The notes below the pieces were generated by a model. The model saw only the letters and a program-made list of their open reading frames with translations, did no database searches and was not told the DNA's origin. This document shows, piece by piece, positions 314 to 62,419 of a stretch of DNA of 64,000 bases (positions are counted from its first letter, which is position 1; the number at the start of each line of letters is the position of its first letter). Source of the stretch: Escherichia phage ECp13; the sequence record PP274704.1. One strand, given 5' to 3'. The translations under genes and the position numbers were made by a program.

Positions 314-2292
314 TGTGATATAGGCTCCAAATCGATAGTTAAGTATTGTGGACGTAAGTCATTTTCAAATACAATCAGTGAACCGTCGCGAGTAAAGATA
401 ACATCATCGGTTGGGTCAGAATATAATTCAATAGTCTGAACTTCAAATTTTTCAGATGTTAAATTAATTTTAGCGATATTCCAATAAATCACATCAGCTG
501 GATAATTTATTTCACCGATAACATAGTATTTGTCGCGTCCATCAGAATTTGCTAATTTGTTAAAATCGTTGCCTGTATATGGCTGAATGTTTTCATTTTC
601 TGTAACATCGCCAGAAGCAAATGGACCAATAATAACTTTACCAATTCCTTTAGAATCTCGGTCTGTTGATACTATGCGAACGTCATATAATACATCTTCT
701 TCTAAACCAGTATCAGGATTTACAACCTTTCGTCCAGAATTAAATGAAAACGTATTAGATTCCATAGAACGGTCTTTTATTTGATTATTGTATTTAATAC
801 CTGCTTCAGGCGTTTTATAGAAGTTTTGTACTTCACGAACAATTTGAATTGTCGCTGATGAACCAATGATAGAATGATCTGCATCATCTACATATGTCAA
901 CATCTTAGATTTAGCGAAAGATGAGTTAAAAATTTCTACATCTTCGGTATAATAACGATCAATTTTATCAATTATTTGACCTTCGAGCCACTGCTCAGAT
1001 TCTTGCAGCTTATTTAAAGCATATGTGACTTTTAAATTAGTCTTAATAAAAAGATAATTAGGAGAAATAATTGATGGCGTAATAGGAGCTAAATTATAGT
1101 CTTTGAGATAATTTTTAATATCTTCGCGCTGTACAGTAGTTAAATATAGCCCTGATTTAGGTTTAGCGGCAATAAATGCATAACCAGGTTTAGTAGAATC
1201 AGTGAACGTCTGAACTGCTTGAATAATAGAACCAAATCTCTCTGAAACGAATGTATCATAATCAGTCGCAGTTACGCAGCGTTGCTGGGTTTCGCGTTTA
1301 ATAGTACCCAATTCGCGAATACGTTCAATATCTTCTGGATCGCCACCGCCATCTGCCCCAACAAAATCCGGGTCATCGTTTGGATTTTCATTAATATTGA
1401 TGACAGTTATATTTGTCAATGTATCTGCGTATGAAAATCCGACTGCGCCATTCGCATCTGCACCGTTAGTACTGATGTACTCAATAACAATCGTAGAGTT
1501 CTGGGTAGGTTTAAGACCTCCAATATAATTAGCAGTCAATGCTCCTTCTGCCGCATTAACAGAAATCTCACCTTCACCAAAATAAAACTCAGTATTTCCA
1601 TCAATAGTTTCACGCATGTAGTAAATTGTCGATGTAGAACCAGCATGAACCATTGACTTTCTTGTCCAGTTAATCCATTCTGCTCCATCAACGTATAGTT
1701 TAACTTGATTTCTATCTATATTTTTGTCATAAATGATAATAGGTGTTAATTTATCATAGATGATTTCAGTTCTTACTATACGCCCCTGGGCTAATTTTAA
1801 ACGCGGAAAATATTGGTTATTTTTATCACGAATAGCAATAACATCTTCGGTAGATACAAAGTTGTAAGGATTAACGGAAGTATCCTTTGCATATGCTAAA
1901 AAGCGAGTACCACGAGGAATAGTAATGTAATTTCTATTCAATGCGTCTGTGCAAGTTAGCATAATTTCAGTTTGAGCAGCTGATTTTGAAGTAGGTAAAT
2001 ATCCATTATCTTGTGCAGCTTGAACTACTGAACTACGCAAATTAGCAGTACGCATAAAGCTTTCGTACAAGGCAGCATTACCAAACTGCTGAATGTATAA
2101 TGTATTATAAGCCAAAAGGTCGCACAGAACGTTTAATCTTGAGCCTTCAAAATCATAATCCAAAAATTCATTTTGGCCATTAAGCCATTCAATGAGGTTT
2201 TGTTTTATTTCAGCAAATGTACCCCCGACGAATATCTCGGGAATAGCATTTGCTGTTCTTGTTAATTGATAATTTACAGGGGTATTTGCCAT
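310..2292 (-). CDS. 6: baseplate wedge protein gp6
   Basis: 660-aa ORF, same length as T4 gp6; synteny 53-5-6-7. Confidence 0.88.
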   Translation of the reverse strand: MANTPVNYQLTRTANAIPEIFVGGTFAEIKQNLIEWLNGQNEFLDYDFEGSRLNVLCDLLAYNTLYIQQFGNAALYESFMRTANLRSSVVQAAQDNGYLPTSKSAAQTEIMLTCTDALNRNYITIPRGTRFLAYAKDTSVNPYNFVSTEDVIAIRDKNNQYFPRLKLAQGRIVRTEIIYDKLTPIIIYDKNIDRNQVKLYVDGAEWINWTRKSMVHAGSTSTIYYMRETIDGNTEFYFGEGEISVNAAEGALTANYIGGLKPTQNSTIVIEYISTNGADANGAVGFSYADTLTNITVININENPNDDPDFVGADGGGDPEDIERIRELGTIKRETQQRCVTATDYDTFVSERFGSIIQAVQTFTDSTKPGYAFIAAKPKSGLYLTTVQREDIKNYLKDYNLAPITPSIISPNYLFIKTNLKVTYALNKLQESEQWLEGQIIDKIDRYYTEDVEIFNSSFAKSKMLTYVDDADHSIIGSSATIQIVREVQNFYKTPEAGIKYNNQIKDRSMESNTFSFNSGRKVVNPDTGLEEDVLYDVRIVSTDRDSKGIGKVIIGPFASGDVTENENIQPYTGNDFNKLANSDGRDKYYVIGEINYPADVIYWNIAKINLTSEKFEVQTIELYSDPTDDVIFTRDGSLIVFENDLRPQYLTIDLEPISQ

Positions 2293-2300
2293 TTTAAATC

Positions 2301-2594
2301 CTATTTAATGAATACTTTAGATGATGCCTGAGCCACAGTATCACCGCATGATATTGGATCAGCCATTTGAACAGCTTTCTTTCCAGTGACATATACCTTA
2401 GAAGTTCTAGGTTGTGTCACTCCGCCATGTGTTTCATATGGCTTTTTAATTTCTGTGTGTTCTGTAATTGGATCACCTGCTACGAGAACAGCAATTCCTC
2501 CAGTGAATACTTTACTTTGTGTAGCATTCACAACTGTTGGAGGCCATGCTTCATGGCCGGCAGTAACACACTTATCATAACTTAATCCTGACAT
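2301..2594 (-). CDS. 5.4: PAAR-like spike tip protein gp5.4
   Basis: 97-aa ORF downstream of gene 5; length and position match T4 5.4. Confidence 0.7.
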
Positions 2595-3152
2595 TTATGG
2601 CCTCTCATACACGTAGCTTCTCAATTTATTAGCCCAACGACTCCAATTTCCAACTATAGTTTTTGTGTAATTTTTAACAAGAGTTTTTCTTATTGGAGCT
2701 GGAGGATCAGTTGGTTCAGTGGTATCAGAAGATGACCTAGAATTACTGCCAGAACCTCCAGATTCACTTTGTTCTTGGTAGTCATATATTAATGTTACTT
2801 CGTAAGTGAATGTCTTCTGGAGGTTTTGAGGAGCTTTCCATAAATATAACTGAGTATTAGAATCAGTTGGAAGGCCTTCCCATGAAGCAGCAGTTTTAAA
2901 TTCATCATCTAAACGATATTTCAATGCGTCATTTCCAAATCCAAATACAGATTCATACGTTCCATATAAACGATTTTCTTCTACTAAAACCCCAGGAGTT
3001 TCTTCGTAACTAGTTATATTTATAGATACTAACGTTTCACCTGTTTCTAATTGAGCGGTAAAGGTGACGTCGATAGAAGAACCTTCCATGGATTCTCCTA
3101 AATCAGCGCTCATTGGAAGTATATTAGCCAATGTCAATCCTCGATCCATCAA
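2595..3152 (-). CDS. 5.1: gp5.1-like protein
   Basis: 185-aa ORF between genes 5 and 5.4, synteny with T4. Confidence 0.6.
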
Positions 3153-4851
3153 TTGTGTATTGACCAGATGAAATAGAACTCATAGATGCCATTTTTTCTG
3201 TCCAATCGCCACCAACGTCCCAATCAACTGTCCCAGCAACTTTCCAAGAAAGATTTCCATTTACTGTATTAGTCTGATTTCCTTCAACTAAAGTGGTAGC
3301 ATCTCCTTTAACTGTAATGTCAGCATTACCTTCAACTACAATAGTAACATTACCTTTGACTAGGATAGTTCCATTACCTTCAACCGTCTTAGTTTCATCG
3401 CCACGCACAAATATTGTATTGCTTCCATCTATTTGGTGGAGACGATTATCCATGTTGTAATAAATTTCTGATCCACCGACGTTAGTCTTTTTATCGCCAG
3501 CTACCAAAAAATTACCATCAGCATTTGTTATATCATACAAATTATCAACAGTTTTTCTTGTTCTTCTTCCTGACGGTGATACTTCCTCATATGTTCCAGT
3601 CGGATGAACTAATCTGTATCGTTCTTGCCCAGGGGTATCATCAAACTCCTGAATATGACCGCTTTCAGTTTCCATTGTATGAACATACGGATATTCGCCT
3701 TTATATGAAGAAACAGGTTCTTTAAATAAAATTCTCGAATCATTCGGAATAGGAGGGTCAGCTGGATCAGAAGACTTTGCTACAGTAGCAGCCATTGCTG
3801 ACAAAGACCTAGCCGGTGTTTTCACTTCAATACCGTATGATTCCAAATTACCCGTAAGAATAATCATGGTAACACGGGATGCACGGCCTTTTGTTTGTTG
3901 ATACCACAATGAATCACGACCAGCTTTATATGCTTTTTCCCAATCTCCGGCTAACATAGCAGTTAACATTGTGTTAAATTTAGCTACACCACCAACACCC
4001 ATCTGAAATGCCATATTTTCTAATGCCATTTGACGAGAACGATTAACTGCTTGCCAAACTGGGCCAACTTTAGAATGTGATTTAATGTCACGTTGCATAT
4101 CAGCCAAATCACGTTCAAATAAAGTTACCGCTTCTTCCATTGTAATAGAACCTGGATTTCCGGTAATTTCACGACCAACTTGTTTTGATAAAACTTTATT
4201 AATTTGAGTCATATCACGAACTGGCTGCTTCATGATAAGATGACCAATACCAATTGTCGGATATCCTTCAGTATCCCAATAAACTTTTAGTCTTAATCCT
4301 TCATCACGGCGAAGCATTTCAGCCATTGACATATTTGGATTATCATCAGTTGGAATCTCTGATAGCGGTCTATCATCGGGATTTATCGCAGTGTCTAGAT
4401 TACTGTCTTGGATAATATTAGAAGACGAATCATATCCTACTTCTCCGCCTTGGTTTAATACGTTAGTATCATTTCCTAGACGTCTAGGATACTGTCCAGT
4501 CGGGTCAGAAAATCCTTCAAGTCTATTCGGTTTTTCGCGAACTATTCCACCATACGTGCCAAGGACAATTCCGTTAGTTTTCCATTTGTCTAAAAAATGA
4601 CCATAAACTCTAGTTCCTTCTACCGGACCAGTAACGGAGCCTCCAATTCCAGACATTGCTGCAGAAGTTATAGGTTGAATAACTGACATCCATGGTAATT
4701 TATCAGTTGGAATACCCATTACATCGCCTTGTGCTCTTTGAGGTGGATGCAGACCAACTACACGAACACGAACACGACCTAATTTTAATGGGTCCATTCT
4801 ATCTTCAACAACACCAACAAACCAATTAAGGTTATTACTTATCATTTCCAT
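3124..4851 (-). CDS. 5: baseplate hub and tail lysozyme gp5
   Basis: 575 aa as in T4 gp5; internal lysozyme domain EGLRLKVYWDTEGYPTIGIGH paralogous to gene e. Confidence 0.9.
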   Translation of the reverse strand: MEMISNNLNWFVGVVEDRMDPLKLGRVRVRVVGLHPPQRAQGDVMGIPTDKLPWMSVIQPITSAAMSGIGGSVTGPVEGTRVYGHFLDKWKTNGIVLGTYGGIVREKPNRLEGFSDPTGQYPRRLGNDTNVLNQGGEVGYDSSSNIIQDSNLDTAINPDDRPLSEIPTDDNPNMSMAEMLRRDEGLRLKVYWDTEGYPTIGIGHLIMKQPVRDMTQINKVLSKQVGREITGNPGSITMEEAVTLFERDLADMQRDIKSHSKVGPVWQAVNRSRQMALENMAFQMGVGGVAKFNTMLTAMLAGDWEKAYKAGRDSLWYQQTKGRASRVTMIILTGNLESYGIEVKTPARSLSAMAATVAKSSDPADPPIPNDSRILFKEPVSSYKGEYPYVHTMETESGHIQEFDDTPGQERYRLVHPTGTYEEVSPSGRRTRKTVDNLYDITNADGNFLVAGDKKTNVGGSEIYYNMDNRLHQIDGSNTIFVRGDETKTVEGNGTILVKGNVTIVVEGNADITVKGDATTLVEGNQTNTVNGNLSWKVAGTVDWDVGGDWTEKMASMSSISSGQYTIDGSRIDIG

Positions 4852-5472: not shown

Positions 5473-5925
5473 ATGGCATATTCTGGAAAATGGGTTCCTA
5501 AAAATATATCAAAATATAGAGGTGACCCTAAAAAAATTACGTATAGATCAAATTGGGAAAAATTCTTTTTTGAATGGTTAGATAAAAATCCAGAAATTAT
5601 TGCATGGGGTAGTGAAACAGCAGTAATTCCTTATTTTTGTAATGCAGAAGGGAAAAAACGTAGATACTTCATGGATATTTGGATGAAAGATTCTTCTGGA
5701 CAAGAATTTTTTATTGAAATAAAACCTAAAAAAGAAACACAACCACCAGTTAAACCAGCACATCTAACAACTGCAGCGAAGAAAAGATTTATGAATGAAA
5801 TTTATACATATTCCGTTAATACTGACAAATGGAAAGCAGCACAAGCTTTAGCTGAAAAGCGTGGAATAAAATTTAGAATTCTAACAGAAGATGGATTACG
5901 AGCTCTTGGCTTTAAGGGGGCATAA
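5473..5925 (+). CDS. 4: head completion protein gp4
   Basis: 150 aa; RBS AAGGAGA; synteny and length match T4 gp4. Confidence 0.85.
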
Positions 5926-6749
5926 TGGCTATTTTTCAAATAATTAATGAAAGCACTCCCCAAGTTCCAAAGGTTAAGCAATCATTAAACGAAAAGAAAT
6001 GGATTCAGATAGGTCTTGAATACAGAAAGGCCAAAGCAAAAGGAATGACAGGAAAGCAATTTGCCGAAGAAAGAGGAATCAAATACTCTACGTTTACTTC
6101 AGCAATGTCAAAATATGCTTCAGGAATTAAAACAGCTGAAAAGATTCAAAAGCTTGAATCAAAACCAATGAATAAACTCAATAAGCAAGAAAGACAACTG
6201 CTTATGATAAATTCATTCAGGCAAACATTGCGTGATAAAATTCGTAATGAAGGTGCAGCAATTAATAATAAAACCAGAAAGTGGTTTGCTGAAACTATTA
6301 AGCAAGTAAAAGGACATAAGGTTGTTCGCCCGCAGCCTGGACGAATATATGCTTTTGCTTATGATGCTAAACACAAGGAAACTCTTCCTTACTGGGATAA
6401 ATTTCCTTTGATAATTTACCTTGGTTTAGGTAAACATAATTTAATGTACGGGTTGAACTTGCACTATATTCCACCTAAAGCTCGTCAGCAATTTTTAGAA
6501 GAGCTTTTAAAGCAATATTCAAATACACCTACTATTACTAATAAAACGAAATTAAAAATTGATTGGAGTCAAGTGAAAGGATTTAGGGGTGCAGACCAAA
6601 TGATTAAGGCATATATACCCGGTAATATTATGGGTAGCCTTGTTGAAATCGCCCCGAAAGACTGGGCGAACGTTGTGTTAATGCCACTTCAGCAGTTCGT
6701 TTCAAAAGGAAAACGTTTCTCTGCAAACAAAGTCTGGTCAAATATCTAA
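5925..6749 (+). CDS. 2: DNA end protector protein gp2
   Basis: 274 aa as T4 gp2; start overlaps gene 4 stop (TAATG). Confidence 0.85.
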
Positions 6750-42999: not shown

Positions 43000-44202
43000 A
43001 TGAAAGTATGCATTTTTATGGCTCGAGGTCTTGAAGGTTGCGGCGTAACTAAATTTTCTCTCGAGCAGCGTGATTGGTTTATTAAAAATGGTCATGAAGT
43101 AACTTTGGTTTATGCTAAAGATAAATCATTTACCCGTAATTGCGCGCATGATTATAAATCATTTTCAATTCCGGTTTTATTGGCAAAAGAATACGATAAA
43201 ACACTTAAGCTGGTAAATGATTGTGATATTCTAATTATCAATTCAGTTCCTGCTACTTCAGTCGAAGAAGACACTATTAATAACTATAAAAAAATTATTG
43301 ATAACATTAAACCTTCAGTTCGTGTTGTAGTTTATCAACATGACCATTCTTCTCTTTCTTTGCGCCGAAATTTGGGATTAGAAGAAACTGTTCGTCGAGC
43401 TGATGTTATTTTTAGTCATTCTGATAATGGCGATTTTAATAAAGTTTTGATGAAAGAATGGTATCCAGAAACAGTTTCTCTGTTTGATGATATTGAAGAA
43501 GCACCGACTGTATACAACTTTCAGCCTCCTATGGATATTGCGAAGGTTCGATCAACCTACTGGAAAGATGTTTCTGAAATTAATATGAATGTCAACCGTT
43601 GGATCGGTCGTACGACTACATGGAAAGGTTTTTATCAGATGTTTGATTTTCACGAAAAACATCTTAAACCTGCGGGATTAAGTACTATTATGGAAGGTCT
43701 GGAACGTTCTCCTGCGTTCATTCCTATTAAAGAAAAAGGAATTCCATACGAATATTATCGTCTTCATCAAGTAGACCAAATTAAAATTGCTCCTAATTTG
43801 CCGACGCAAATTCTCGACCGTTATGTAAATAGCGAAATGCTTGAACGCATGAGTAAATCCGGATTTGGTTATCAGCTGAGTAAGTTGGATAAAAAATATC
43901 TACAACGTTCTTTAGAATATACTCATCTCGAGCTTGGTGCGTGTGGAACAATTCCAGTATTTTGGAAATCTACTGGCGAAAATTTAAAATTCCGTGTTGA
44001 TAATACTCCGTTAATTTCTCATGATAGCGGTATCGTTTGGTTTGATGAAAATGACATGGAATCAACATTTGAGCGTATTAAAGAACTGTCATCTGACCGA
44101 AATCTTTATGACCGTGAACGCGAAAAAGCTTATGAATTTTTGTATCAGCATCAAGATTCAAGCTTCTGCTTTAAAGAACAGTTTGACATTATTACAAAAT
44201 AA
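43000..44202 (+). CDS. a-gt: DNA alpha-glucosyltransferase
   Basis: 400 aa; ...CIFMARGLEGCGVTKFSLEQRDWFIKNGHEVTLVYAKDKSF... matches recalled T4 alpha-gt. Confidence 0.92.
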   Translation: MKVCIFMARGLEGCGVTKFSLEQRDWFIKNGHEVTLVYAKDKSFTRNCAHDYKSFSIPVLLAKEYDKTLKLVNDCDILIINSVPATSVEEDTINNYKKIIDNIKPSVRVVVYQHDHSSLSLRRNLGLEETVRRADVIFSHSDNGDFNKVLMKEWYPETVSLFDDIEEAPTVYNFQPPMDIAKVRSTYWKDVSEINMNVNRWIGRTTTWKGFYQMFDFHEKHLKPAGLSTIMEGLERSPAFIPIKEKGIPYEYYRLHQVDQIKIAPNLPTQILDRYVNSEMLERMSKSGFGYQLSKLDKKYLQRSLEYTHLELGACGTIPVFWKSTGENLKFRVDNTPLISHDSGIVWFDENDMESTFERIKELSSDRNLYDREREKAYEFLYQHQDSSFCFKEQFDIITK

Positions 44203-53775: not shown

Positions 53776-53809
53776 TACTCTATCAACCAATACAAATTTG
53801 GAGAATGAA

Positions 53810-54190
53810 ATGAAAATTGCTATTTTGGTTATTGCATTGGGTCTTACTGGTTGTGTAGCTCAAGGACCAGTAGTAAATCAGTCTGATGCAGGAAAAATTG
53901 TAAACTGTTCAAGCAAATTTTATAATCCTAACGTCAAGTGTTATAAAGAAGCTCCAAAACAGACAGTAGAACAAATGCAGGCGAATTTTGACGAAGCTAT
54001 TCGTCCAGATGAATCTGCTCAAGCATATCGTAATTCAGATGTAATTACACGCGAAGAAAAAATTGAAAACTACTGCGCCGAACTTTGGGCTAATTGGGCT
54101 AATAATTACCAATGGCGAACTGGTAAAAATGCTCCAATGGAGTATGTAGTGAATTCTTATAATTCATGTGTAAAAAATTTGACTAAGTGA
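53810..54190 (+). CDS. putative lipoprotein
   Basis: 126 aa from ATG at 53810; lipobox LTGC after hydrophobic signal. Confidence 0.55.
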   Translation: MKIAILVIALGLTGCVAQGPVVNQSDAGKIVNCSSKFYNPNVKCYKEAPKQTVEQMQANFDEAIRPDESAQAYRNSDVITREEKIENYCAELWANWANNYQWRTGKNAPMEYVVNSYNSCVKNLTK

Positions 54191-54197
54191 GGAAAAG

Positions 54198-54449
54198 ATG
54201 GAAACTTTAGTAGCAGGTTCAATTTTTATGGTTTTAGTTTCATGCGTGTTGGCTATTATTATATACATGCTTCCATGGTTCATCGCCTTGATGCGCGGGT
54301 CAAAATCGACAGTAGGAATCTTTTTCACATCTTTACTGTTTAACTGGTCAATTATTGGTTGGTTTATTACATTTATTTGGTCAATTGCGGGTGAAACTAA
54401 AAAATCTGTGCAGCAAAATCAAGTAATTATCATCAGAGAGAAGGAATGA
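54198..54449 (+). CDS. imm: superinfection immunity protein Imm
   Basis: 83 aa, two hydrophobic helices; length and position match T4 Imm. Confidence 0.75.
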   Translation: METLVAGSIFMVLVSCVLAIIIYMLPWFIALMRGSKSTVGIFFTSLLFNWSIIGWFITFIWSIAGETKKSVQQNQVIIIREKE

Positions 54450-54577
54450 AAAGCAAAATTTTAACAGTATTGCTTTTAATCTTGATGATTATAATAAGTA
54501 TATACTATAGCGTAACGGTTCCTTGTATGATTCCAACGCTTATTATAGGGTGGAGTTTATTACTGTTACAAGTTAAA
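54446..54577 (+). CDS. possible small membrane peptide
   Basis: 43 aa hand-translated, hydrophobic; ATGA overlap with imm. Confidence 0.3.
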
Positions 54578-54602
54578 TATGAATGTATCAATTGAGGTTT
54601 AA

Positions 54603-55343
54603 ATGATTAATGACTCTTTGACAGTTGAAGAAACTCGTCTTCATTTGGGAATTGCGTTAAAGGAAAAAGATTTCGTAATTGATAAAACTGGCGTTAAAAC
54701 TATTGAAATTATTGGCGCATCATTTGTAGCAGATGAACCGTTTATTTTTGGCGCTCTTAATGATGAATACATTCAGCGTGAACTTGAATGGTATAAATCT
54801 AAAAGTTTGTTTGTTAAAGATATTCCGGGTGAAACACCGAAGATTTGGCAACAGGTAGCATCTTCTAAAGGCGAAATTAACTCGAATTATGGTTGGGCCA
54901 TCTGGTCAGAAGATAACTATGCCCAGTATGATATGTGTTTAGCTGAACTTGGTCAAAATCCTGATTCTCGACGTGGTATCATGATTTATACTCGTCCATC
55001 CATGCAGTTTGACTACAATAAAGATGGTATGTCAGATTTCATGTGTACGAATACAGTACAGTACCTGATTCGTGATAAGAAAGTCAATGCAGTAGTAAGC
55101 ATGCGTTCAAATGACGTGGTCTTCGGATTCCGTAATGATTATGCATGGCAAAAATACGTACTAGATAAATTAGTATCTGATTTGAATGCAGGTGATTCAA
55201 CTCGTCAGTATAAAGCAGGTTCCATTATATGGAATGTCGGGAGCCTTCATGTGTATTCCCGTCATTTTTATTTGGTTGACCATTGGTGGAAAACTGGCGA
55301 AACTCATATTGCGAAAAAAGATTATAACGGTGAGTGGAAATGA
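54603..55343 (+). CDS. 42: dCMP hydroxymethylase gp42
   Basis: 246 aa as T4 gp42. Confidence 0.92.
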   Translation: MINDSLTVEETRLHLGIALKEKDFVIDKTGVKTIEIIGASFVADEPFIFGALNDEYIQRELEWYKSKSLFVKDIPGETPKIWQQVASSKGEINSNYGWAIWSEDNYAQYDMCLAELGQNPDSRRGIMIYTRPSMQFDYNKDGMSDFMCTNTVQYLIRDKKVNAVVSMRSNDVVFGFRNDYAWQKYVLDKLVSDLNAGDSTRQYKAGSIIWNVGSLHVYSRHFYLVDHWWKTGETHIAKKDYNGEWK

Positions 55344-56182
55344 TTCAATTCGTAATTCCAAGCTATCAACGCGTAGGGGCAGTTTCTGCCCTTGATATGT
55401 TTCCGACTGATTATGAACCTCATATTGTAGTACGTGAACACGAAGAAAAAGCTTATTATGACGCTTACGGGTCTAGAGCTAAAATTATAACTATTCCTGA
55501 TGATGTTAATGGAATTGCTGGTACTCGTAAAGCAATTACTGATATGTATGCAGGTCAACGAATTTGGATGATTGATGATGATACTACTATTCGTATGAGT
55601 TCAATGCGAAAGAAAGATGATCGTCGCTGCGTAGATAAAATTAATCAGTTAACTCGTGAACAGTTCTATGAATTGATTCAATACGTTGAAGATGCCATGG
55701 ATTGCGGGTATTATCACGGTCATGCTCGTCTACCTATTTTTAAAATTACTTCATCTTGGGGTAATTATCGTGAAAATTCATATGGATTCACGAATACTTG
55801 GTATGACCTCGGGAAACTTACAACAGAACAAATTGGGTATGGAAAAATTGATTTATGCGAAGATATGTATGCATTTCTCAATTTAATTAATCAAGGTTAT
55901 CCGCATTTGGCCTTGTTCAAATATCTGGTTGTGTCTGGAAAAGCACAGGCTCCTGGCGGATGTAGTTCAATTCGTAGTAATTCAAAACATAATAGAGCTC
56001 TTGAGCAAATCAATAGAGAGTTTCCAGAGCAAGCTCGTTGGAAAACATCGAATATCGAAAAGAGAAAATCGTTGGGTGAAGAAGACGAGCCATTAAAAGT
56101 TCTTCGCATGTGTGTTTCGCGCAAAGAAAAATCAGAAGCATTTCATAAGTTTAATGCTATTCATCCAATAGCAGTTGATTAA
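55340..56182 (+). CDS. DNA glycosyltransferase with DXD motif at the beta-gt locus (not T4-type beta-gt)
   Basis: 280 aa from ATG at 55340; DXD-like RIWMIDDDTTIR; unrelated to the recalled 351-aa T4 beta-gt. Confidence 0.7.
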   Translation: MIQFVIPSYQRVGAVSALDMFPTDYEPHIVVREHEEKAYYDAYGSRAKIITIPDDVNGIAGTRKAITDMYAGQRIWMIDDDTTIRMSSMRKKDDRRCVDKINQLTREQFYELIQYVEDAMDCGYYHGHARLPIFKITSSWGNYRENSYGFTNTWYDLGKLTTEQIGYGKIDLCEDMYAFLNLINQGYPHLALFKYLVVSGKAQAPGGCSSIRSNSKHNRALEQINREFPEQARWKTSNIEKRKSLGEEDEPLKVLRMCVSRKEKSEAFHKFNAIHPIAVD

Positions 56183-56259
56183 TGCCTAAATTTATTGTGT
56201 TATAATTACTCTATCTTTAACCAGTGAGGAAAATATAATGTTGCCTATGGAAAAAATGA

Positions 56260-57441
56260 ATGTCTATTGCAGATTTAAAATCCCGTTTGATTAAAGCTTC
56301 CACTTCTAAAATGACTGCTGAACTGACTACATCTAAATTCTTTAATGAAAAGGATGTAATCCGTACAAAAATTCCAATGCTTAATATCGCTATTTCTGGT
56401 GCGATTGATGGTGGTATGCAGTCTGGTTTAACCATTTTTGCAGGTCCTTCTAAACACTTTAAATCAAATATGTCTTTGACTATGGTTGCGGCGTATTTGA
56501 ACAAATATCCTGACGCGGTATGTCTATTCTATGATAGCGAATTTGGTATTACTCCAGCTTATTTGCGATCCATGGGAGTTGACCCGGAACGAGTAATTCA
56601 TACACCAATCCAGTCAGTTGAACAGCTGAAAATTGATATGGTGAATCAGCTTGAAGCTATTGAGCGTGGTGAAAAAGTTATTGTATTCATCGACTCAATT
56701 GGTAATATGGCTTCTAAGAAAGAAACGGAAGATGCCTTGAATGAAAAATCTGTGGCAGATATGACTCGTGCTAAATCACTGAAGTCATTATTCCGTATTG
56801 TTACTCCTTATTTTAGTATTAAAAACATTCCATGCGTTGCGGTTAACCATACAATTGAAACAATTGAAATGTTTAGTAAAACCGTGATGACAGGTGGTAC
56901 AGGCGTAATGTATTCGGCTGATACCGTATTCATTATCGGTAAGCGCCAGATTAAAGATGGTTCTGATCTTCAGGGGTATCAATTTGTTCTAAATGTAGAA
57001 AAATCTCGTACCGTTAAAGAAAAAAGTAAATTCTTTATTGATGTTAAATTTGACGGTGGTATCGATCCTTATTCTGGATTGTTAGATATGGCTCTTGAAT
57101 TAGGATTTGTGGTAAAACCTAAAAATGGCTGGTATGCTCGTGAATTTCTTGACGAAGAAACCGGCGAGATGATTCGCGAAGAAAAATCTTGGCGTGCAAA
57201 AGATACCAACTGCACTACATTCTGGGGTCCTTTATTTAAGCATCAGCCATTCCGAGACGCTATTAAACGTGCTTATCAGTTAGGTGCTATTGATAGTAAT
57301 GAAATTGTTGAAGCTGAAGTTGATGAATTGATTAACTCAAAGGTTGAAAAATTTAAATCTCCAGAAAGTAAAAGTAAATCAGCAGCTGATTTAGAAACTG
57401 ACCTAGATCAGTTAAGTGATATGGAAGAATTTAATGAATAA
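56260..57441 (+). CDS. uvsX: RecA-like recombinase UvsX
   Basis: 393 aa; Walker A GPSKHFKS; matches recalled T4 UvsX. Confidence 0.93.
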   Translation: MSIADLKSRLIKASTSKMTAELTTSKFFNEKDVIRTKIPMLNIAISGAIDGGMQSGLTIFAGPSKHFKSNMSLTMVAAYLNKYPDAVCLFYDSEFGITPAYLRSMGVDPERVIHTPIQSVEQLKIDMVNQLEAIERGEKVIVFIDSIGNMASKKETEDALNEKSVADMTRAKSLKSLFRIVTPYFSIKNIPCVAVNHTIETIEMFSKTVMTGGTGVMYSADTVFIIGKRQIKDGSDLQGYQFVLNVEKSRTVKEKSKFFIDVKFDGGIDPYSGLLDMALELGFVVKPKNGWYAREFLDEETGEMIREEKSWRAKDTNCTTFWGPLFKHQPFRDAIKRAYQLGAIDSNEIVEAEVDELINSKVEKFKSPESKSKSAADLETDLDQLSDMEEFNE

Positions 57442-61901: not shown

Positions 61902-62419
61902 ATGGCTTACTTTAATGAATGTAGTCAACTGATTGAAGGCGCTGATAAAGCTCAAAATGAATACTGGGATATTCTCGGCGATGAAAAAGACCCGCTGCAG
62001 GTTATGCTTGATATGCAGAAATCTCTGCAGGTTCGTTTAGCTAAAGATAAACCTGAATATAACCGTCATCCTGATGATTTGGCTACTGCAGGTGAAGTTG
62101 TTGATTGGCTGCGTAATCAGAAAGATTATATTGATGATGAATTCCGCGAACTTCTGACTTCTCTTGGTGGTATGAGCAATGGCGAAAAAGATGCATCTGC
62201 TGTATGGAAGCTTGGAAGTCGCAACACGGTGAACGTCGTGAAACTCTGATTACTGACTTATCTCCACAAGACCAGTTGGAAATTAAATTCGAAATGATTG
62301 ATATTCTTCATTTCGTTCTGAACATGTTCCAAGGTCTCGGTCTTACGGCTGAAGAAATCTTTAAACTTTATTATCTGAAAAATGCTGAAAACTTCGCTCG
62401 TCAAGACCGAGGTTATTAA
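61902..62419 (+). pseudogene. 56: dCTPase gene 56 disrupted by a frameshift (two overlapping ORFs)
   Basis: N-part from ATG 61902 stops at 62249; C-part (..SPQDQLEIKFEMIDILHF..RQDRGY) is in another frame to 62419; removing 8 bp at 62211-62218 gives about 169 aa. Confidence 0.7.

Follow-up and report, generated by a model that had tools for sequence, protein, structure and literature searches.

The gene located between gene 42 and uvsX of Escherichia phage ECp13 almost certainly encodes a beta-glucosyl-HMC-alpha-glucosyltransferase of the type known from T2 and T6, which is variously called ba-gt, ggt, g-gt, TAGT or glucosyl-DNA beta-glucosyltransferase. The window that we analysed is a stretch of 64,000 nucleotides of this phage (sequence record PP274704.1), and the features discussed are collected in Table 1. 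The sequence comparisons and the structure prediction that argue for this assignment comprise the identity to the T2 and T6 enzymes, synteny, family membership, predicted fold, motif conservation, the presence of alpha-gt and the absence of a T4-type beta-gt from the window. No result speaks against it. The identity of this gene is known from textbook T-even biology, and the enzyme was studied again between 2024 and 2026. The ba-gt gene was reportedly cloned and sequenced by Winkler and Rueger in 1993.

Table 1. Features of the ECp13 window (positions within the 64,000 nucleotides)
Feature	Coordinates	Strand	Basis or remark
alpha-gt, DNA alpha-glucosyltransferase, predicted to make the alpha-glucosyl-HMC acceptor for ba-gt	43000..44202	+	400 aa
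gene 42, dCMP hydroxymethylase, predicted to make the HMC precursor	54603..55343	+	97% identity to ime09 gp42; so annotated in T4, T6 and KNP5
Segment without DNA homology to T4	55326..56271	+	946 bp, versus 1941 bp in T4
ba-gt (TAGT gene), predicted beta-glucosyl-HMC-alpha-glucosyltransferase	55340..56182	+	280 aa and stop
ATGA overlap of ba-gt start codon and gene 42 stop codon	55340..55343	+	sequence
IPSYQR loop motif (I6-R11) after strand beta-1	55355..55372	+	R11 invariant; I6 and P7 at least 90% conserved
WMIDDDTT (W76-T83), hydrophobic strand followed by DXD	55565..55588	+	D80 invariant; D79 and D81 at least 90% conserved
DXD motif D79-D80-D81	55574-55582	+	within WMIDDDTT
E174-D175, candidate base for an inverting GT-A mechanism	55859..55864	+	D175 invariant; role presumptive
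uvsX, downstream neighbour of ba-gt	56260..57441	+	ORF list, annotated relatives
gene 56 (dCTPase/dUTPase), HMC pathway	61902..62419	+	interrupted by one-base deletion at 62211

The gene and its start codon

The open reading frame described in the sequence-only reading, with 280 codons and the motif WMIDDDTT, is a real gene. It is found at full length in 474 phage records, and therefore it is not a chance open frame. In the list of open frames it runs from a GTG at 55334 (282 aa), with the ATG at 55340 lying two codons further. This ATG is the annotated start in KNP5 and ime09, it is preceded by a Shine-Dalgarno-like GGTGAG at positions -11 to -6, and it shares the sequence ATGA with the stop codon of gene 42, which suggests that translation of the two genes may be coupled. 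Because I6, P7 and R11 are conserved in the family, the translation start has to lie at or upstream of this ATG. We preferred it to the upstream GTG and also to M20, where the annotation of the T6 record MH550421 places the start; that choice of M20 results from an amber codon at position 10 of the record's gene. A scan for sigma-70 promoters around ba-gt, which does not cover the T4 middle and late promoters, gave 11 sites where 9.2 +/- 3.0 were expected, hence no excess over chance.

Locus and neighbouring genes

The window as a whole is that of a T2/T6-like Tequatrovirus, its closest records being about 97 to 98% identical over 20 kb. T6 and T2 are collinear with it across the ba-gt region in blastn comparisons, and the gene order is the same as in ime09, T2 and T6. 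The position of ba-gt between gene 42 and uvsX, as claimed in the sequence-only reading, is borne out by the annotated relatives of both neighbours. That reading also placed beta-gt in the corresponding interval of T4, which is right as far as it goes, but T4 has segA there as well. When the T4 locus was compared with the window by blastn, the match ended at 55325, 18 nucleotides before the end of gene 42, and restarted at 56272, just inside uvsX. The segment in between stands in place of the T4 cassette consisting of beta-gt and segA. A tblastn search for T4 beta-gt in the 64-kb window (of a genome of about 167 kb) gave a best E value of only 6.9, and no counterpart of segA was found in the window.

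The alpha-gt gene, which had been recognized correctly from the sequence, aligns from end to end with PDB entry 1XV5 (the crystallized T4 DNA alpha-glucosyltransferase), with an E value of 5.9e-256, and is 99.75% identical to a-gt of ime09. It has matches in 504 phage records, and among the matches listed the annotation is alpha-glucosyltransferase.

Between imm and gene 42, a hydrophobic open frame of 49 aa occupies 54446..54595. T4, T2, T6 and KNP5 have it too, open and conserved, and it is annotated in KNP5 and left unannotated in the T4, T2, T6 and ime09 records that were examined.

Relationship to the T2/T6 enzymes and the TAGT family

A megablast search with ba-gt returned 479 phage records with 90 to 99% DNA identity, of which 474 match at full length. 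Nearly all records that carry the gene are Tequatrovirus genomes, from Escherichia, Shigella, Yersinia, Salmonella and Citrobacter, and many of them name it beta-glucosyl-HMC-alpha-glucosyltransferase. The proteins of KNP5 and ime09, which bear this annotation, are 100% identical to the window protein. The syntenic proteins of T2 (AP018813) and T6 (AP018814) are 99% and 98% identical over 280 aa, which is the outcome of the comparison with the T2/T6 enzyme that had been suggested earlier. Like these, the window protein has 280 aa, occupies the slot between gene 42 and uvsX, has alpha-gt as its partner and contains the conserved motifs. It differs from the T2 enzyme by four substitutions (R11H, K92R, I101V and P251S; the window residue is given first) and from the T6 enzyme by five (Y40N, D55G, K92R, I101V and R106H), which are ordinary allelic differences.

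The family assignments point in the same direction. The window protein matches PHROG 842, named beta-glucosyl-HMC-alpha-glucosyltransferase, with an E value of 5.6e-89. In Pfam, it scores 38.8 bits with PF20691 TAGT (TET-associated glycosyltransferase), above the gathering threshold of 27.5, and the whole 205-position model is covered, with residues 3-207 aligned to model positions 2-205. The close homologs all carry a precomputed PF20691 domain; neither ba-gt nor alpha-gt is represented by a model in NCBIfam. The TAGT family takes its name from members associated with the TET/JBP dioxygenases, which make 5-hmC within DNA. The window enzyme is unlike those members in that 5-hmC is produced here by the nucleotide-level pathway of gene 42 and a sugar attached to the base beforehand serves as the acceptor. 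Together with the fold described below and the literature on T6, the identity to T2 and T6 and these family matches support the proposal of the sequence-only reading that the protein is a candidate beta-1,6-glucosyl-alpha-glucose transferase.

The TAGT family is broad, with 337 representatives (50% clustering) at an E value of 0.001 or lower in an exhaustive search of representatives. Its members are found together with alpha-GT, together with beta-GT or alone (PMC13216743), so their specificities probably vary, and one may ask whether the window enzyme uses another sugar donor or another acceptor, such as bare 5-hmC or beta-glucosyl-hmC. We consider this highly improbable. Only four residues differ from the T2 enzyme and five to six from that of T6, and at 98 to 99% identity a changed specificity is very unlikely. 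Moreover, the window protein is identical to those of many Tequatrovirus isolates, and gentiobiosyl-hmC was measured in isolates with the alpha-GT and TAGT pair (PMC13390438).

The enzyme is a functional analogue of T4 beta-gt and not a homolog of it. Both are encoded in the slot downstream of gene 42, use UDP-glucose as the donor and bring about beta-linked glucosylation of phage DNA. However, the lack of resemblance to the 351-aa T4 protein that had been noticed in the sequence holds in BLASTP (best E value 3.4), and Pfam returned TAGT for the window protein and not PF09198, the family of T4 beta-gt. T4 beta-gt has a GT-B fold, whereas that of the window protein is GT-A according to its model, and the acceptor of the T4 enzyme is bare 5-hmC, whereas ba-gt would act on the glucose that alpha-glucosyl-hmC carries. 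A further difference is segA, which is part of the T4 cassette and absent from the window.

Predicted fold and conserved residues

With an alignment of nine homologs as input, AlphaFold2 gave a model of the window protein that has moderate confidence overall (mean pLDDT 73, pTM 0.75) and in which the loops 140-149 and 191-211 are poor (pLDDT below 50). When this predicted model was compared with the PDB by Foldseek, it matched GT-A folds, in line with the superfamily to which the sequence-only reading had pointed. The top 14 matches were all GT-A glycosyltransferases (WrtF, TarS, RmlT; E values of 8.6e-05 to 1.9e-03), and later matches to K4CP and TarP (2.7e-03 to 1e-02) stood among sugar nucleotidyltransferases, which belong to this fold class too. 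The window protein as modelled has a GT-A, GT2-like fold. Sequence searches of the PDB, with the single protein and with a profile of 54 family sequences, gave no meaningful match. Because no solved structure is related at the sequence level, the evidence for the fold comes from the predicted model only, and the roles of the residues rest on analogy.

The GT2-like inverting GT-A enzymes, such as TarS and TarP of S. aureus, RmlT of L. monocytogenes, BcsA and K4CP, share with the window protein a Rossmann-like core and a DXD motif after a hydrophobic strand, and in both cases the product linkage is consistent with inversion. They differ in that the identity is only 8 to 16%, with TM values of about 0.45 and no relationship at the sequence level, and in that their acceptors are teichoic acids or polysaccharides and not DNA. 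With TarS, TarP, RmlT, WrtF and BcsA, all cell-wall or polysaccharide enzymes, as the nearest structural neighbours, it could be supposed that the window protein acts off DNA, for example on the host envelope or on a protein, and is merely located at this place. This is barely conceivable, as these matches are at the level of the fold only and deletion of the T6 ortholog specifically alters DNA modification (PMC11078745, PMC13160076). In addition, ba-gt sits between a gene for HMC synthesis and genes for replication and recombination, and it co-occurs with alpha-gt.

Conservation was judged in an alignment of 54 diverse TAGT representatives, reaching down to about 20% identity. R11, D80, D175, G186 and G207 are invariant in these representatives and are all present in the window protein; I6, P7, E35, D79, D81, G206, R212 and P229 are at least 90% conserved. 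The motif that had been described as DXD-like can therefore be called a true and conserved DXD. In the model, strand 74-77 (RIWM) directly precedes I-D79-D80-D81, which is the canonical GT-A arrangement. The IPSYQR loop, which can be likened to the PxYN motif of GT2 enzymes, presumably binds the nucleotide-sugar.

Proposed pathway and mechanism

In the pathway that we envisage, gene 42 would produce hydroxymethyl-dCMP, which is then built into phage DNA, and alpha-gt would place an alpha-linked glucose on the 5-hmC in the DNA. The ba-gt enzyme would then transfer a second glucose from UDP-glucose to the 6-OH of the first in beta linkage, giving gentiobiosyl-hmC. Within the enzyme, the DDD motif D79-D81 may hold the divalent metal and the diphosphate of UDP, the IPSYQR loop may contact the nucleotide, and an invariant acidic residue, most likely D175, may serve as the base in an inverting displacement that converts an alpha-donor into a beta-product. 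The inverting mechanism is suggested by the GT-A fold class together with this stereochemistry. As a result, the alpha-glucosyl-hmC that defences such as the glycosylase Brig1 target would be masked.

The pathway itself is well established from earlier work: gene 42 and the enzymes acting on nucleotides lead to DNA that contains HMC, alpha-glucose is added by alpha-gt, and ba-gt then adds the beta-1,6-linked second glucose to give gentiobiosyl-hmC (PMC13216743, citing Kuno and Lehman 1962; PMC13160076). A T6 mutant with a deletion of ba-gt loses gentiobiosyl-hmC and contains alpha-glucosyl-hmC only; Brig1 degrades the DNA of this mutant, and the mutant phage shows increased Brig1 sensitivity (PMC11078745). 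Similarly, BapA deglucosylates the DNA of a T6 g-gt deletion mutant, releasing glucose, while wild-type T6 DNA is not a substrate (PMC13160076). The T2/T6 enzyme is identified as a TAGT in two studies of 2026, one of which gives its position as syntenic to that of T4 beta-GT (PMC13390438). In the other, an AF3 model of T6 TAGT with a GT-A fold and a sister grouping to GT2 is reported (PMC13216743).

An irregularity was observed in another gene of the HMC pathway. Where EC121 and Sfk20 have CC in gene 56, the window has a single C at 62211, and the resulting frameshift leaves two fragments of 116 aa and 71 aa. When the missing C is put back, the gene encodes a protein of 172 aa identical to gp56 of EC121, and the deletion is absent from every other record in the phage collection. 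Most likely, the frameshift is a sequencing error. The dCTPase encoded by gene 56 is essential for keeping cytosine out of phage DNA. If the frameshift were real, one would have to question whether the phage makes HMC DNA in the normal way.

Extent of gentiobiosylation

We infer that the DNA of the window phage is substantially gentiobiosylated. In ten natural Tequatrovirus isolates with alpha-GT and TAGT, LC-MS showed alpha-5-gentiobiosyl-mdC and no beta-glucosyl form. In three of them, the ratio of hmC to alpha-glucosylated to gentiobiosylated hmC was about 1:2:2; in the other seven, hmC made up about one third and gentiobiosyl-hmC about two thirds (PMC13390438). The classical exception is T2, in which gentiobiosyl-hmC amounts to about 5%, versus about 72% in T6 and 40 to 72% in T6 and the natural isolates taken together (PMC13390438, PMC13160076). 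As the enzymes of T2 and T6 are nearly identical, the extent of gentiobiosylation is not predictable from the sequence.

It is accordingly conceivable that ba-gt is present but plays a minor role, as in T2, where a gene product 99% identical to that of the window goes along with so little gentiobiosyl-hmC (PMC13390438, PMC13160076), and that the DNA of the window phage is mostly mono-alpha-glucosylated with a few percent of gentiobiosyl-hmC. We regard this as unlikely, because all ten measured isolates had about 40% to about 67% gentiobiosyl-hmC (PMC13390438) and the T2-specific change R11H, which affects a family-invariant arginine, does not occur in the window allele. The 33-mer with the His codon was found in seven of seven T2 records and in SV76, and in no other record of the phage collection, although such exact matching misses His alleles that have other SNPs nearby. 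R11H could, purely as a hypothesis, explain the low diglucosylation of T2. More generally, alleles at family-invariant positions of ba-gt might set the ratio of mono- to diglucosylated hmC among T-even phages, a proposal that we put forward tentatively and with more doubt than conviction. In the window allele, R11 and D175 are retained, as is the complete DDD motif. Substantial gentiobiosylation is our preferred expectation, and if the reading in terms of alleles is true, the window phage would, like T6, have heavily gentiobiosylated DNA and be relatively protected from glycosylases specific for alpha-glucosyl-hmC.

A separate observation concerns the T6 genome records. Both independent records carry lesions in ba-gt, each a different one, and the window allele has neither. 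MH550421 has the amber codon at position 10, which is unique to that record, so that it differs from the window by five substitutions and one stop codon. In AP018814 and its RefSeq copy NC_054907, one GAT of GATGATGAT is missing, which changes DDD to DD. This deletion is limited to AP018814 and its copy, except that HP3.2 probably shares the DD form. We also considered the change from DDD to DD as the cause of the difference in diglucosylation between T2 and T6 and rejected it, since the independent T6 record MH550421 has DDD.

Implications

The combination of alpha-GT and TAGT is the common state among Tequatroviruses, and in this sense the gene is an ordinary one; the alpha-GT and beta-GT pair of T4 is rare, being found in 6 of 753 genomes (PMC13216743). 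Possession of alpha-gt and ba-gt instead of alpha-gt and beta-gt predicts that the DNA contains unmodified hmC, alpha-glucosyl-hmC and gentiobiosyl-hmC and no beta-glucosyl-hmC. This predicted DNA chemistry in turn predicts the sensitivity of the phage to modification-dependent defences: gentiobiose guards against Brig1 and BapA, while enzymes of the GmrSD type still attack (PMC13216743, PMC11078745, PMC13160076). Knowing which pair of glucosyltransferase genes a phage carries is therefore useful for annotation and for the choice of therapeutic phages.

Edges and surroundings of the glucosyltransferase cassette

The cassette that carries the T2/T6-type glucosyltransferase gene (ba-gt) in the window is exchanged for another in T4, with sharp boundaries that take in the last 18 nt of gene 42 and the first 12 nt of uvsX. 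The T4 cassette also contains the homing endonuclease gene segA, which the window does not have. A terminator scan of the region gave two sites, against 0.9 ± 0.9 expected, and detected a GC-rich hairpin that spans codons 12 to 18 of ba-gt; it may be due to chance or represent mRNA folding close to where ba-gt begins.

Upstream, a small ORF whose start overlaps the imm stop as ATGA is conserved and open in T4, T2, T6, and KNP5, whereas in ime09 the 3' end of its counterpart is frameshifted. KNP5 lists this ORF as hypothetical, and the T4, T2, T6, and ime09 records examined leave it without annotation; the very hydrophobic product is probably a small membrane protein. The additional T2 segment between gene 43 and imm.1 is absent from both the window and T6, and it contains one small ORF for which the annotation, tail tape measure, is implausible.

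Coordinates of the features in the window and in the comparison loci
Feature	Sequence	Position	Strand	Details
Additional T2 segment	T2 (L003)	5655-5936		about 280 bp; window counterpart 53787-53810
Small ORF	window	54446-54595	+	49 aa (MKSKILTVLLLILMIIISIYY...); between imm and gene 42
Exchanged cassette	window	55326-56271		T4 (L004) counterpart 1557-3497
ba-gt codon 11	window	55370-55372		R11 kept
Hairpin	window	55374-55394	+	9 bp; TAGGGGCAG-TTT-CTGCCCTTG
Gene 56 (dCTPase/dUTPase)	window	61902-62419		one-base deletion; indel at 62211
Gene 56 N-terminal ORF	window	61902-62249		116 aa; product of split
Gene 56 C-terminal ORF	window	62204-62419		71 aa; product of split
ba-gt	T2 AP018813 (L003)	3283-4125		R11H
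ba-gt	T6 MH550421 (L005)	1300-2142		amber TAG at codon 10
ba-gt	T6 AP018814 (L002)	3135-3974		one GAT of GATGATGAT missing; DDD to DD

Gene 56

Cytosine-free HMC DNA requires the essential dCTPase/dUTPase encoded by gene 56, which is split into two ORFs in the window. Sequence comparison showed GGAAG-CTTGG at the indel site, compared to GGAAGCCTTGG in EC121 and Sfk20, and with the missing C put back the frame again encodes 172 aa, the same protein as EC121 gp56. This deletion was not found in any record of the phage collection and is probably a sequencing error.

ba-gt alleles of T6 and T2

The two independent T6 genome records have different lesions in ba-gt. Because of the amber codon, the CDS in MH550421 is annotated from M20. 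The loss of one GAT in AP018814, which shortens the conserved DXD motif, is also present in its RefSeq copy, NC_054907, and probably in HP3.2. Laboratory stock drift or sequencing errors could be the cause of the T6 lesions. In RefSeq, the T6 protein that serves as a family reference is the DD form.

The T2 substitution R11H is present in all seven T2 records and in SV76; R11 is invariant across the 54 diverse TAGT representatives in the family alignment. Gentiobiosyl-hmC (diglucosylated hmC) in T2 has been reported at only about 5%. It is possible that R11H is a hypomorphic ba-gt allele that accounts for the difference between T2 and T6.
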